A stretch of 64,000 nt of DNA from Candidatus Aenigmatarchaeota archaeon (GTDB lineage: Archaea > Aenigmatarchaeota > Aenigmatarchaeia > GW2011-AR5), in contig JAWCLW010000001.1 in NCBI GenBank assembly GCA_039091535.1, forward strand, positions 11,881 through 75,880, in the 5' to 3' direction. Position 1 is the first letter of the stretch. Every line of letters starts with the position of its first letter. The position numbers and the translations under genes were made by a program. Shown piece by piece: positions 2,128-57,490 of the stretch. The notes beneath the pieces are model-generated. The model was not told the DNA's origin and searched no databases. It was given only the letters and a program-made list of their open reading frames with translations.

Positions 2128-3543
2128 ATGAGAAAATTATTGTTGTTTGTATTATTTCTTCTGATAGCCAATGTAGTTTTTGCTTTCGAGATAAGTGCAC
2201 CTGAGGGTACAATAGACATAGGTACAGGTAGCACAAAGATTATTAACATAAATCTTACAAGCAACAAGGATGATGATATCACATTTAGTTTTGTAGATGG
2301 AAAGACGTGGATTAATCTGGATGTACAAAAAATTAAAATAAATGCGGGTGAAATAAAAACTGTAAAGGTTTATATTTCACCTTTTTTCACAACACAGTTT
2401 GGACTTTATAAGATCGGTATTGTTGCCGAATCTACGATAAGCAAAGAAACTAAAAAAGCAGATATATTCATTAATGTAAAACGTGGTGAATATATTTACA
2501 TAGACAAGGTTACTGTAAGCGGAAATCTTGAGCCAAAAGGATATGCAAAAATAGAGACAACAATAAAAAATTATAAGTTAAAAACAGTAAATGATATATA
2601 TGTACATACAATTGTTTCATCCCCATTAAGGAAATTATTGGACACAACAATAAAGATAGATAAACTTGATCCAGATGAATCAAAAACAATTGAAAATATT
2701 ATTAATTTTGATAGGCTTGCTGAACCAGGTACATACAACGTAAAAATAATATCAGAATATATGAATGAAAAAAATGAATATGAACAAACATTTGCAGTCA
2801 TAAAAAAAAGTGTAATAACAAAACAATATGAAAAATTTCCATTACTTCTTGGATACGGAAAAACTATAAGAGTAAGAAATGATGGTAATGAAGTTGGTGA
2901 TGAAATTGTTTATGATGATGTGCCAAAATTTGATTCTATATTCTTTTATGGAGATGAACCAACACAAAAGGAAGATGGACGCTATGCATGGAAAATAAAA
3001 GATATAAAACCAGATGAAGAAAAAACAATAACATATTACATAGATTATTCACCATTATTTGTTTTCGTACTAGCAATAATTATAGTTTTTTGGTTCTTTT
3101 TCTATAAATATAGAACTGTAAGAATTAGTAAATTTATTTTAAATAAGAAACACATCGAAGAGGGTGAGGAGTTTACAGTATGTATAAATGTTTATAATGG
3201 TTTAAAGAAACTGGACGAAATTTTGGTACATGATTTTGTCCCATCGATATTTAAAATAAAGGATACAGAAGGACCTGTACCACATAAAAAGACAACAAAT
3301 ATAGGAACAGAATTAACATGGAAATTAAAAGATGTTAAAAGTCATGAAACAAGAATATTAACATATAAAATAATACCAATATTTGGAGTACATGGTACAA
3401 TAAGATTGCCAGAAGCATCTGCAGAATTCAAGTTCGGCAAAAAGTTTGTAAAAAATATCTCAGGATCCCCATCAATTGGTTTAGTTGAAAGTGAAGAAAC
3501 AAAAATAAAATTACTAAGAAGTAAATTTATTTCCAGGAAATAG
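2128..3543 (+). CDS. Secreted/membrane beta-rich protein (signal peptide, CARDB/Ig-like repeats, internal TM helix, C-terminal beta domain)
   Basis: N-terminal signal peptide MRKLLLFVLFLLIANVVFA; repeated beta-strand-rich segments; TM helix PLFVFVLAIIIVFWFFFY followed by KYRTVR. Confidence 0.6.
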   Translation: MRKLLLFVLFLLIANVVFAFEISAPEGTIDIGTGSTKIININLTSNKDDDITFSFVDGKTWINLDVQKIKINAGEIKTVKVYISPFFTTQFGLYKIGIVAESTISKETKKADIFINVKRGEYIYIDKVTVSGNLEPKGYAKIETTIKNYKLKTVNDIYVHTIVSSPLRKLLDTTIKIDKLDPDESKTIENIINFDRLAEPGTYNVKIISEYMNEKNEYEQTFAVIKKSVITKQYEKFPLLLGYGKTIRVRNDGNEVGDEIVYDDVPKFDSIFFYGDEPTQKEDGRYAWKIKDIKPDEEKTITYYIDYSPLFVFVLAIIIVFWFFFYKYRTVRISKFILNKKHIEEGEEFTVCINVYNGLKKLDEILVHDFVPSIFKIKDTEGPVPHKKTTNIGTELTWKLKDVKSHETRILTYKIIPIFGVHGTIRLPEASAEFKFGKKFVKNISGSPSIGLVESEETKIKLLRSKFISRK

Positions 3544-3641
3544 TGCTTTTAATGAATAAAATGAACAATCCTTCTTTAATGTCACATTAATAAACATCAA
3601 TTTTAAATAAATAGACAATTCTTAATTTTATAGTTAAATTT

Positions 3642-3772
3642 CCCCTGATAGCTCAATGGTGCAACAAAATGCATTAAAGAGCGCGTGGCTGTAGACGAGC
3701 TCTATTGAGCTTGTCACCAGTAGGTGCTCGGAAATTACCATGAGGTTGGGAGTTCGAATCTCCCTCAGGGGA
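3642..3772 (+). tRNA. tRNA-Tyr (anticodon GTA) with C1:G72 pair and two predicted introns (about 16 nt in the D-loop, 42 nt at 37/38)
   Basis: Acceptor cccctga/tcagggg+A73 (C1-G72 is the archaeal Tyr identity pair); U8 A9; D stem gctc...gagc separated by 24 nt; anticodon stem cgtgg/ccatg enclosing ctGTAga plus 42 extra nt with a cgagc/gctcg helix; T arm gggag-ttcgaat-ctccc. Confidence 0.75.
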
Positions 3773-3860
3773 CTTAATTTAACTTTAAAAAGATTTGTTA
3801 ATATTTTAAGGTATAATGAGTTGATTATTCAACTTATCATTAAAAAATGGGGGTTATTTT

Positions 3861-8536: not shown

Positions 8537-10021
8537 TTATCTTTCAATGGTATTAGTTGTTTCAATACCATAAAATGATGTTTCACGACTGCCATGCTCG
8601 CTTAAACGTTCTAAAATTGCATTTTCTCTAAATTCTTTTAAATTTCTACAACCAGCATTACTCATAGACGACTTTACTATATTTGCATCATATTCTATGT
8701 TTGGCTTAAGTCTGCCTCTATATTTTACTATACCTTCAACACCCTCAGGGAAAAATGTTTTAATTGTTTCATGACTATATCTACCTAAATTCATAGCTCT
8801 TCTAGAGCCTTCTCCCCATATCTCTTTGTATTTTATTTCGTTTTCTCTTTCATCTGGTTTATCTATAGGTTTTTTTTCTGCGTCAAGTGGTGTACCCTCA
8901 GCCTCAAAAAATTGATTAAAATATTTACCCATCATCAAAGCATCAGCACCAATTGCCAAAGCTATAACCATATCACCAGTATTTTCTATAGAACCATCCA
9001 TAATAACTGGTATATATTTTCCTGTTTTGTTAAAGTATTCATCTCTTTTATTAACAACTTCTATTAAAGATCTCGCTCCTCCACGACCAACGCGCTTAAC
9101 TTCTGTTGTTGTACAAATAGAACCAATTCCCATTCCAACCTTAATAATATCTGCACCATGAGAAACCAAGCAATCAAAACCTTCCTTTGTTACAATGTTA
9201 CCACCACATATTGGAACATTCGGATATTCTTTTTTGAATTCTTTTATAACATTTACTGCCCAATAATTGTATGCGTCAGATGTATCTATAGAAATTAAAT
9301 CAACACCTGCTTCTATAGCAACATCTACTCGTTTCTTCCAACCTTCGTACGTATCTATGGAAACAGCTATATAGTTTGGTCTATCTTTTTTGAAAGCAAA
9401 TTTAATTAGATGACCTTCATTGTCTAAAATTGGCATAATTTTTTTTCCATTTTTTTCCATATATTCCAAAATTTTATCTTCTGTTGCTGTAATAAGACAA
9501 AAATCAATGTTTTCTCTATTTTTATTTTTTTTCATTAAATCCTTCATCTTTGCATCATTAGGATGCTTTTCCGGACTTATATAATAGAATACACCAAGAT
9601 ATTTTCCATATTCATTTACTATTGGAATTGTTGAGTGTCCATATTTTTTTATTTTTTCTTCATAAACCCTTTCAAATTTATCTTCTGGACCCGCTGTGAT
9701 TATTCCTGGATAATTATGAATTATCAGTTTATCTTTTTTTGCCTTAATATCTTTTATAATTCTAATAATCTCTTCTAATTCTAAAGAACGTGGGAGAAAT
9801 GGTATCATCCCATTTCTTGCCACCTCTAATGCCATTTTGTATCCAGTAACAGAACGCATAGCAGCTGGTATAAATGGGAACTTTAATTTAATCAAAGGGG
9901 AAAGTTCAGTTTCTATATTAATATTTTGTATTATGCAATTCTTATCTGTATAGCTTGGTAAAAGAACATAATCTTTAAAACTTGTTGATCTCTCATCATC
10001 TCCTCTAATTTCTTTTGCCAT
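8537..10021 (-). CDS. guaB: IMP dehydrogenase family protein with CBS pair
   Basis: TIM-barrel IMPDH/GMPR fold with catalytic-loop KVGMGIGSICTTTEV; CBS-like insert; 494 aa. Confidence 0.65.
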   Translation of the reverse strand: MAKEIRGDDERSTSFKDYVLLPSYTDKNCIIQNINIETELSPLIKLKFPFIPAAMRSVTGYKMALEVARNGMIPFLPRSLELEEIIRIIKDIKAKKDKLIIHNYPGIITAGPEDKFERVYEEKIKKYGHSTIPIVNEYGKYLGVFYYISPEKHPNDAKMKDLMKKNKNRENIDFCLITATEDKILEYMEKNGKKIMPILDNEGHLIKFAFKKDRPNYIAVSIDTYEGWKKRVDVAIEAGVDLISIDTSDAYNYWAVNVIKEFKKEYPNVPICGGNIVTKEGFDCLVSHGADIIKVGMGIGSICTTTEVKRVGRGGARSLIEVVNKRDEYFNKTGKYIPVIMDGSIENTGDMVIALAIGADALMMGKYFNQFFEAEGTPLDAEKKPIDKPDERENEIKYKEIWGEGSRRAMNLGRYSHETIKTFFPEGVEGIVKYRGRLKPNIEYDANIVKSSMSNAGCRNLKEFRENAILERLSEHGSRETSFYGIETTNTIER

Positions 10022-11153: not shown

Positions 11154-11729
11154 TTAATATTGTATGCCTTTTGTTGTAGGCAATTTCTCCGGAATTTTTA
11201 TCTCAACAATCTCATTGACAAAATCTGATTTGTCAATTAATTCTTTTGGTGCATATCTCCCAGTCAAAATAACATTTGTTCTTTTTGGTATTTTATTTAA
11301 AAAATCTATTACATCATCAATGTTTAGAAGATTCCAGTGCAAGGCTAAATTAATTTCATCTAAAATCAATAGATGTGGTTTCTTTTCCTTCATAATCTTT
11401 TTTGCAAACTCTAATGCTTCATTTGCAAGTTTTTTGTCAAATTCTTCCAAATTCTTAACAATAAATTTTTTTCCACCGAATCTAAATGTTTTTGAACCTT
11501 TATTATTAACTTTGAACCACCCAGGACGACCAAACTGATATATTTCATAATAAGGTCTCAACCTCTTTTCTATTTTGCATTCTCCAATATTTTTCCACCA
11601 TTTTAAAAACTGTATTATAATAACTTTTTTTTTATGGCCAACAGAGCGCAAAGCTAGACCTAATGCATTTGTTGTTTTACCGCCACCAGAACCAGTATAA
11701 AGATAGATATGTCCCATAATTATCATCAT
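11154..11729 (-). CDS. cobA: Cob(I)alamin adenosyltransferase, CobA/CobO/BtuR family
   Basis: P-loop YTGSGGGKTTNALGLALR, then VIIIQFLK...LLILDEIN, characteristic of CobA-type ATP:corrinoid adenosyltransferases. Confidence 0.85.
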   Translation of the reverse strand: MMIIMGHIYLYTGSGGGKTTNALGLALRSVGHKKKVIIIQFLKWWKNIGECKIEKRLRPYYEIYQFGRPGWFKVNNKGSKTFRFGGKKFIVKNLEEFDKKLANEALEFAKKIMKEKKPHLLILDEINLALHWNLLNIDDVIDFLNKIPKRTNVILTGRYAPKELIDKSDFVNEIVEIKIPEKLPTTKGIQY

Positions 11730-56377: not shown

Positions 56378-57490
56378 TTATTTCTTTTTTCTCAATTTTT
56401 CAACATCTACAGTTAACTTAACCATACCTGTACCAATAGGTGCAATCTGTCCTAAAAGTACATTCTCTATAATCCCATCAAGATTATCACTTTCACCATA
56501 GAACGATGCATTTACTAGATGTTTTTTTGTCTCTTCAAAATTTGCACGAGCAAGTACACTTGCCTTTTTTCCAGAAACACCATATCGACCTATATCCTTT
56601 ATAGTCCCATCAAATGTCATCATATCAGCAAGTAATCTTATATGACGTATATCAACATCAAGTCCCTGTTCATCCAATGTATTTTTAGTTTCTTGAAGTA
56701 TAACATTTCTTGCAGCCTCAATACCAAGAACTTCATAAACCTGATATACATCATTTGTTCTTGTTCTTTCAATATCAATCCAATCAAGTGATAAAATTTT
56801 CTTTAGGTTTGAGCCTGTTGTTCGTATTACCCAATCATCACCATCCTTTATAACAACAACATTTTCTATACCTTTTATACCATCTACATGCAGTTTGAGT
56901 ATTTTATTTTTTAATTTTCTTAGATTCTTTGCATCATTTTTTTCTGGCTTTATATATATTTTTTTGCCTTTTAGTGAAATTTCACAATTCTTAACATATT
57001 TATCAAGAATTTCTTTTATCTTATTTTTATTACTTTCTTTTTCTACTTCCATTTCAATTCTCAATTCTATTAAATCTATCGAGCTATATGTAATTAGGTC
57101 ACTTATTTTCAATGCCTTTATTTTACTTGCAAATTCTTTGGCTTTTTCCATTGTATTATATTCTGGTTTTAGGAATATTATCATATTCTTTTCGAATGTC
57201 TTTCTTGCATCAAAAATTTCTATAAGTCTTGGAAGACCATGTGTAACCTTGCTTAATCTATCGCTTTGCGATGCAAGTGTGTAAGATCGCATTGTCATCT
57301 GTGTAGCAGGCTCAGAGATGCTCTGTGCAGCTATTATTCCTATCGCCTCTCCAGGTTCGTATAAATATTTTTTTATTATTGTGGAAAGTAGTTTGAATTT
57401 TTCTTCTTTCTCTTTCTCAGATATATTATTTTTTTTGCAGTATTCATCAAATGCATCTAAAATATTTTTTGGTATATACATAATGATCAT
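56378..57490 (-). CDS. rpoA2: DNA-directed RNA polymerase subunit A'' (Rpo1C)
   Basis: 370 aa; conserved C-terminal third of the largest RNAP subunit; follows rpoA'. Confidence 0.93.
   Translation of the reverse strand: MIIMYIPKNILDAFDEYCKKNNISEKEKEEKFKLLSTIIKKYLYEPGEAIGIIAAQSISEPATQMTMRSYTLASQSDRLSKVTHGLPRLIEIFDARKTFEKNMIIFLKPEYNTMEKAKEFASKIKALKISDLITYSSIDLIELRIEMEVEKESNKNKIKEILDKYVKNCEISLKGKKIYIKPEKNDAKNLRKLKNKILKLHVDGIKGIENVVVIKDGDDWVIRTTGSNLKKILSLDWIDIERTRTNDVYQVYEVLGIEAARNVILQETKNTLDEQGLDVDIRHIRLLADMMTFDGTIKDIGRYGVSGKKASVLARANFEETKKHLVNASFYGESDNLDGIIENVLLGQIAPIGTGMVKLTVDVEKLRKKK

Follow-up and report, generated by a model that had tools for sequence, protein, structure and literature searches.

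The window analysed here, a 64,000-nucleotide stretch of archaeal DNA with ~29% G+C, harbours at positions 3642-3772 of its forward strand a 131-nt tRNA-Tyr(GUA) gene that is very probably functional. It would be transcribed as a precursor of ~131 nt carrying two protein-spliced introns of the bulge–helix–bulge (BHB) type, one of 17 nt at D-loop position 20/21 and one of 42 nt at position 37/38. Its sequence and covariance-model alignment confirm a genuine tyrosine tRNA gene, interrupted twice, in a small DPANN archaeon (Aenigmatarchaeota). With the two predicted introns in square brackets, the gene reads CCCCTGA TA GCTC AATGGT[GCAACAAAATGCATTAA]A GAGC G CGTGG CTGTAG[ACGAGCTCTATTGAGCTTGTCACCAGTAGGTGCTCGGAAATT]A CCATG AGGTT GGGAG TTCGAAT CTCCC TCAGGGG A, and its parts are as follows.

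3642..3660 (+): exon 1, with the acceptor 5' strand CCCCUGA, U8 and A9, the D-stem 5' half GCUC and D-loop nucleotides AAUGGU (14-20), from the Rfam alignment and from ARAGORN after splicing
3661..3677 (+): intron 1, 17 nt (GCAACAAAAUGCAUUAA), D-loop position 20/21, predicted from a strict BHB
3678..3694 (+): exon 2, with A21, the D-stem 3' half GAGC, G26, the anticodon-stem 5' half CGUGG and loop CU-GUA-G (anticodon 3691-3693, G37 at 3694), from Rfam and ARAGORN
3695..3736 (+): intron 2, 42 nt, canonical position 37/38, predicted by ARAGORN, the BHB scan and constrained folds
3737..3772 (+): exon 3, with A38, the anticodon-stem 3' half CCAUG, variable loop AGGUU, T arm GGGAG-UUCGAAU-CUCCC, acceptor 3' strand UCAGGGG and A73, from Rfam and ARAGORN

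The tRNA body itself is well defined. The Rfam model RF00005, whose gathering score is 29 bits, matches the gene at 47.1 bits (E = 6.4e-07) with all of model positions 1-71 aligned, and leaves 18 nt of the D-loop and 45 nt of the anticodon loop as inserts. The covariance-model check proposed in the initial annotation, made from the sequence alone, yields a cloverleaf with two inserts, and the length, acceptor, T arm, anticodon arm, C1:G72 pair and A73 given there all hold. The native gene escapes ARAGORN whether or not the intron option is used. Once positions 3661-3677 are deleted in silico, the program recognises tRNA-Tyr(gta) and puts a 42-nt intron at 37/38, as had been proposed, and deletion of both inserts gives an intron-free tRNA-Tyr with a standard cloverleaf. 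The molecule spliced in silico (17 nt at 3661-3677 and 42 nt at 3695-3736 removed) is 72 nt long. Its D-loop becomes AAUGGUA (7 nt) and its anticodon loop CUGUAGA, with no leftover or missing nucleotides, and we take the latter to be identical to the M. jannaschii tRNA-Tyr loop. U8, A14, G18G19, the A15:U48 pair, G53:C61 and G37 are all kept. The identity set by which archaeal TyrRS recognises its tRNA consists of C1:G72, A73 and the anticodon GUA. Here, at the ends of the acceptor stem CCCCTGA/TCAGGGG, C3642 pairs with G3771 (C1:G72) and A3772 is A73, while GTA occupies 3691-3693. CCA is not encoded; CTT follows directly after A73.

For the introns, a BHB was defined as a 4-bp helix between two 3-nt bulges (PMC4090602), and on each strand the bulge 3' of the central helix was taken to be cleaved between its nucleotides 2 and 3. 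In the D-loop, the outer helix of the predicted motif is the D stem itself (4 bp), the central helix AAUG (3655-3658)/CAUU (3672-3675) is paired at 4/4 positions, the bulges are GU↓G (3659-3661) and AA↓A (3676-3678; arrows mark predicted cuts) and the inner helix is CA/UG (2 bp). This strict hBHBh' motif is the highest-scoring BHB found by the scan anywhere in the precursor. The predicted cuts give the junction AAUGGU↓AGAGC and restore the canonical 7-nt D-loop AAUGGUA. Any strict BHB in the D region arises in 0.125% of shuffles of the intron and in 0.295% of shuffles of all 24 nt that separate the D-stem halves GCTC and GAGC. The initial annotation had read this 24-nt spacing correctly and had deduced a D-loop intron of ~16 nt from it; the BHB motif likewise predicts an intron, but one of 17 nt. 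A BHB-type intron at D-loop 20/21 is thus supported by the sequence and its predicted pairing.

A second gene in the same window, overlooked by the standard finders, bears on this assignment. ARAGORN misses it, and Rfam returns only a weak 14.5-bit match to a tmRNA-clan model. It was compared with orthologues lying upstream of rpoH in relatives whose RpoB is 77-83% identical.

63846-63675 (-), window: hidden tRNA-Lys(UUU), 172 nt, between tRNA-Asp (37 nt upstream) and rpoH (immediately downstream), with a 30-nt intron at 20/21 and a 68-nt anticodon-loop insertion
63825-63796 (-), window: predicted D-loop intron of this tRNA-Lys, 30 nt at 20/21, with GU↓G, CA/UG, AA↓A and central helix CCUG/UAGG
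~63778-63711 (-), window: anticodon-loop insertion of this tRNA-Lys, 68 nt
2633-2706, relative L097: tRNA-Lys, intronless
2621-2715, relative L098: tRNA-Lys with only a 21-nt intron, at 37/38
2451-2555, relative L094: tRNA-Lys with a 31-nt D-arm intron at a site other than 20/21
2206-2444, relative L095: tRNA-Lys with an 85-nt intron at 20/21 (central helix CCUG/CAGG) and an 80-nt T-loop intron

The five orthologous genes thus show five different intron configurations. The insert at 20/21 is present in the window and L095 and absent from L097 and L098, whose exons are near-identical, and the boundary between presence and absence falls exactly at the junction predicted by the BHB. Since the D-loop intron of the window's tRNA-Lys has the same position and design as that of tRNA-Tyr, it supports intron 1. 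All three introns at 20/21 (tRNA-Tyr and the tRNA-Lys genes of the window and L095) share the bulge AA↓A, and the central helix covaries with the D-loop across the three instances (AAUG/CAUU, CCUG/UAGG and CCUG/CAGG).

It is extremely improbable that only the anticodon intron is excised and that the 17 nt stay in mature tRNA-Tyr as an enlarged D-loop hairpin. Together with neighbouring bases they can form a 7-bp hairpin that RNAfold rates as more stable than the BHB fold. However, such a retained hairpin would sequester G18 and G19, which in a tRNA must contact the T-loop. Further, a strict BHB in the D-loop is improbable by chance, as the shuffles indicate, and the equivalent tRNA-Lys insert is missing from orthologues with otherwise near-identical exons. 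Splicing of D-loop BHB introns is also established in A. pernix (PMC3241643).

The 68-nt insertion in the anticodon loop of the window's tRNA-Lys is more complex and may represent adjacent or nested introns. No single BHB joins position 37 to 38; instead, several strong, mutually exclusive BHB-like motifs are predicted. Removal through one strict BHB leaves a hairpin resembling an anticodon arm, UACGG-CUCUAAA-CCGUA. A two-step path, in which 22 nt and then 46 nt are taken out, the latter via a strict BHB, leads to G38, where the orthologues have A38. A single splicing path was sought, and several are possible with none decisive. In relative L095, the rpoA'' product (9104-9261 and beyond; 828 aa) contains intein-splicing and LAGLIDADG domains; the rpoA'' of the window (56378-57490, 370 aa) has no intein.

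The second interruption of tRNA-Tyr lies at the canonical position. As had been noted, the anticodon stem CGTGG/CCATG encloses 49 nt, which start with CTGTAG and end with A. The predicted motif is bordered by the anticodon stem (5 bp) and by a distal helix CGAGC (3696-3700)/GCUCG (3726-3730) (5 bp), the CGAGC/GCTCG pairing already pointed out in the initial annotation, which can lengthen to ~12 bp in constrained folds. These two 5-bp helices are spaced by exactly 7 and 7 nt, the exact BHB register, and the bulges AG↓A and UU↓A give the junction CUGUAG↓ACCAUG. The central helix CUGU/GAAA contains 2/4 standard pairs (U-A and U.G), the others being C.A and G.A. In canonical pre-tRNAs the first two anticodon bases sit within this central helix (PMC4090602). 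The same motif at the exact sites of intron 2 is reached by 0.7% of shuffles. Collectively, the predicted structure fits a relaxed BHB with a degenerate central helix, and a BHB-type intron at 37/38 is probable.

Conceivably, the same gene and the same product could involve a different recognition of intron 2, through a bulge-helix-loop, a split hBH/HBh' motif or a cut at 38/39. We regard this as unlikely. Only 2/4 pairs stand in the central helix, CUGU can also be paired with GUAG (3720-3723) as read from the sequence, and a 38/39 cut is conceivable as A3695 and A3737 are both A. Enzymes that carry specificity loops are further known to act on relaxed motifs (PMC4090602, PMC3241643). However, the 38/39 register and the GUAG pairing have, by reading, worse flanking helices, and the scan ranks neither in its top twelve motifs; the 7x7 spacing between 5-bp helices is what the BHB ruler needs, at a frequency of 0.7% among shuffles. 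When alternative registers were compared by the scan and by reading, the BHB at 37/38 was stronger than the 38/39 cut, than GUAG as the partner strand and than a 19-nt motif nested at gene positions 57-75.

Other identities were considered for the two inserts. Group I or group II introns are excluded by size (17 and 42 nt). In Euryarchaeota, tRNA-Trp introns can bear a box C/D sRNA; the C box RUGAUGA and the D box CUGA were sought in both tRNA-Tyr introns, and neither is present.

The cut rule applied to tRNA-Tyr reproduced every junction that an intronless orthologue fixes. It was right for two introns in tRNA-Ser of L047 (compared with L034), for the 37/38 intron in tRNA-Lys of L098 and for the D-loop introns in tRNA-Lys of the window and L095 (compared with L097/L098). 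In the tRNA-Tyr precursor, the BHB is not the minimum-energy fold: BHB conformers reach -43.8 kcal/mol, compared with -54.1 kcal/mol for the best cloverleaf-constrained fold and -59.3 kcal/mol for the unconstrained one. A competing 9-bp hairpin at 3694-3715 buries the 5' splice site of intron 2 in the predicted folds. Promoter and terminator signals were sought in the flanks, which are ~80% A+T, so that TATA-like and oligo-T strings are uninformative there.

By analogy with the established archaeal pathway, tRNA-Tyr would be transcribed as a ~131-nt precursor with two BHB-type introns, in which the splicing endonuclease EndA would recognise each BHB and cut between bulge nucleotides 2 and 3. 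An RtcB-type ligase would then join the three exons, RNase P and RNase Z would trim the ends, and CCA would have to be added because it is not encoded. The expected product is a 72-nt tRNA with every tyrosine identity element.

On the predicted structures, a strict BHB in the tRNA core (intron 1) combined with a degenerate central helix (intron 2) would imply an EndA with relaxed substrate requirements. The initial annotation had likewise argued that D-loop introns need an endonuclease of broadened specificity, which is in line with published experiments (PMC3241643, PMC5829648). In these, a D-loop BHB was hardly cut by a strict alpha'2 enzyme and was cut by enzymes with specificity loops (PMC3241643). 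Neither EndA nor RtcB is among the Pfam matches of the 73 ORFs in the 64-kb window, and a tblastn search of the window with M. jannaschii EndA (query verified against PDB 1A79) gave no match. EndA was likewise not found in the other loci examined.

The lineage of the window carries many such genes. EF-1alpha and RpoB of the window match proteins of a Candidatus Aenigmatarchaeota archaeon without any difference. Its best EF-1alpha matches among GTDB species representatives belong to Aenigmatarchaeota (70-88% identity), and related Aenigmatarchaeota have predicted non-canonical tRNA introns in the D-arm, T-loop and anticodon stem and at 8/9 that vary between close relatives. Among DPANN relatives, tRNA-Ser(GGA) lies downstream of S10: in L047 (4536-4654) it is interrupted at 8/9 by 16 nt and within the anticodon stem by 19 nt, and the genes of L028 and L034 are intronless. 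At the same location in L033 (4434-4712), tRNA-Ser(GGA) carries a D-loop insertion of ~93 nt that its near-identical orthologue in L025 (4241-4478) lacks; both of these genes have very long inserts in the anticodon region. Read by eye, tRNA-Asp of L094 (~2283-2448) has apparent inserts in the anticodon stem and T-loop; the tRNA-Asp copies of the window, L095 and L097 are intronless. Non-canonical and multiple tRNA introns therefore appear to be routine in this lineage, and their gain and loss appear to be fast. The initial annotation had described multi-intron tRNAs with non-canonical positions as restricted to a few archaeal lineages. This is fair for the literature but not within Aenigmatarchaeota, where such genes look routine, so that the tRNA-Tyr gene is less surprising than it first seemed.

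The 73 ORFs of the window encode common archaeal housekeeping functions (an RNA polymerase operon, exosome subunits, MCM, TBP and ribonucleotide reductase, among others). The tRNA-Tyr gene itself lies at a rearranged spot: in relatives, EF-2 and a small ORF are upstream of EF-1alpha. No tRNA-Tyr was found upstream of EF-1alpha in 80 GTDB loci and four closer contigs; since these relatives have no tRNA at the EF-1alpha locus, no orthologue of the gene was recovered there.

It is very unlikely that this is a decaying or silent gene whose maturation is blocked, by the inserts or by the degenerate helix at the anticodon, and whose role is taken by another tRNA-Tyr gene elsewhere. The weak central helix of intron 2 (2/4), the more stable hairpin competing over its 5' splice site and the rearranged site (in relatives EF-2 precedes EF-1alpha, with no tRNA there) would all be compatible with decay. 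However, the gene keeps 21/21 cloverleaf pairs together with its tertiary positions and identity elements, and its D-loop BHB is strict and statistically rare. Moreover, equally interrupted tRNA-Lys, tRNA-Asp and tRNA-Ser genes are the only copy at conserved loci in relatives, and small DPANN genomes usually carry a single gene per tRNA species.

Several further features were seen around the gene. Window positions 2128-3860 place tRNA-Tyr at a break in the order EF-2, small ORF, EF-1alpha found in relatives L090-L093. The ORF preceding it (2128-3543, 471 aa) is poorly conserved, with weak Top6b_C and DUF11 matches; it was tried as a synteny anchor and discarded, having one weak match (27% identity, L018) among the EF-1alpha loci. 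L090 has an IS200/IS605 Y1 transposase gene upstream of EF-1alpha with an 89-aa ORF between them. On the reverse strand of the window, an ORF at 1222-1596 matching 'putative phage metallopeptidase' (PF18894, E = 8.5e-22) adjoins tRNA-Thr (1655-1727) and could be the remnant of an integrated element.

A 2.8-kb contig identical to the window's sequence occurs in Logan run SRR27730043. When metagenomes were scanned for the exon pattern of a tRNA-Tyr interrupted in the D-loop, only one other two-intron tRNA-Tyr was returned, at 8010-8167 of L088 and identical in L089. This tRNA-Tyr(GUA) gene contains a 27-nt D-arm intron, placed at 22/23 by its BHB; its intron at 37/38 is 58 nt long, and the central helix there, CUGU/ACAG, is perfectly paired. 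The FEN1 encoded next to it has its nearest named counterparts in TACK lineages (56-64% identity to Ca. Geothermarchaeota), which makes L088 an independent case of a two-intron tRNA-Tyr. The two genes share the tRNA and the combination of D-arm and 37/38 introns, and their exons are 85-90% alike with compensatory stem changes: between the spliced molecules, 21/21 stem pairs are kept, 7 being changed on both sides and 0 broken, and 15:48 covaries. They differ in the D-arm intron (27 nt at 22/23 in L088, 17 nt at 20/21 in the window) and in the length of the 37/38 intron (58 and 42 nt, respectively). As the intron sequences are unrelated, the gains of these introns look independent. Matches of the exon pattern in viral contigs were dismissed, as they span 30-31 nt only and leave no room for a D-loop insert. 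The L088 contig also has a tRNA-Gly with a 13-nt intron and, at 11166-11297 (L089 3304-3435), a tRNA-Trp whose 58-nt intron contains AUGAUGA and resembles the known box C/D guide intron of this tRNA.

Doubly interrupted archaeal tRNA genes with a D-loop intron are already known; for Aenigmatarchaeota, our literature search found no paper describing tRNA introns. The closest precedent is pre-tRNA-Glu(UUC) of Methanopyrus kandleri, with introns at D-loop 20b/21 and at the canonical 37/38 (PMC5829648). In both genes the D-loop is interrupted at its 3' end, directly ahead of A21, and a second intron follows at 37/38. The EndA pathway, which for the window is presumed, is also the same; the tRNA and the phylum differ. 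Further, the quality of the motifs is reversed: in M. kandleri it is the D-loop that has the relaxed motif (HBh') and the anticodon loop the strict one, whereas the window's tRNA-Tyr has a strict D-loop motif and a degenerate anticodon central helix.

Similarly, pre-tRNA-Thr2(UGU) of Aeropyrum pernix contains a D-loop BHB intron that was spliced in vitro; it needs an EndA with a specificity loop, and wild-type A. fulgidus EndA hardly cuts it (PMC3241643). It resembles intron 1 in that a canonical BHB is sited in the D-loop, but comes from a crenarchaeon whose (alpha-beta)2 EndA has a Crenarchaea-specific loop, and the intron is single. In Thermoproteales, tRNA-Pro of Pyrobaculum islandicum carries introns at 25/26 and 56/57 besides the canonical one (PMC4090602). 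Multi-intron tRNAs of that order likewise combine several BHB-type introns per gene with rapid gain and loss among relatives; the superphylum and the insertion sites are different.

Within DPANN, disrupted tRNA genes are known from ARMAN-1/2, which have an epsilon2 EndA, and from others with an alpha4 EndA bearing an L3 loop (PMC3239211, PMC3488258, PMC5829648). The lineages with the L3-bearing alpha4 enzyme have more disrupted tRNA genes (PMC5829648). These systems belong to the same superphylum as the window, and non-canonical and multiple introns are tied to small genomes in them; Aenigmatarchaeota lie outside the species sets of all three studies (PMC3239211, PMC3488258, PMC5829648).

A broader picture can be put forward for the clade, though we hold it to be doubtful as a whole. 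Its tRNA genes may host fast-moving BHB introns with one design in common at 20/21 (GU↓R ... AA↓A ahead of GAGC), which would pass from one tRNA gene to another (Tyr and Lys) and turn over between close relatives. Their endonuclease might have an uncharacterised architecture, accept a degenerate central helix and process the adjacent or nested introns of tRNA-Lys by ordered splicing.

The tRNA-Tyr gene leaves the known picture of archaeal tRNA splicing unchanged. Its practical meaning lies partly in detection. ARAGORN misses both tRNA-Tyr and tRNA-Lys and Rfam misses tRNA-Lys, such that standard finders overlook genes of this kind. DPANN bins will therefore seem to be without essential tRNAs, to the detriment of completeness estimates and metabolic inference. 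Further, with five tRNA-Lys configurations at 77-83% RpoB identity, the clade offers a convenient natural series for the gain, loss and recognition of tRNA introns, and would be useful for finding the EndA features that allow D-loop and degenerate-helix substrates.
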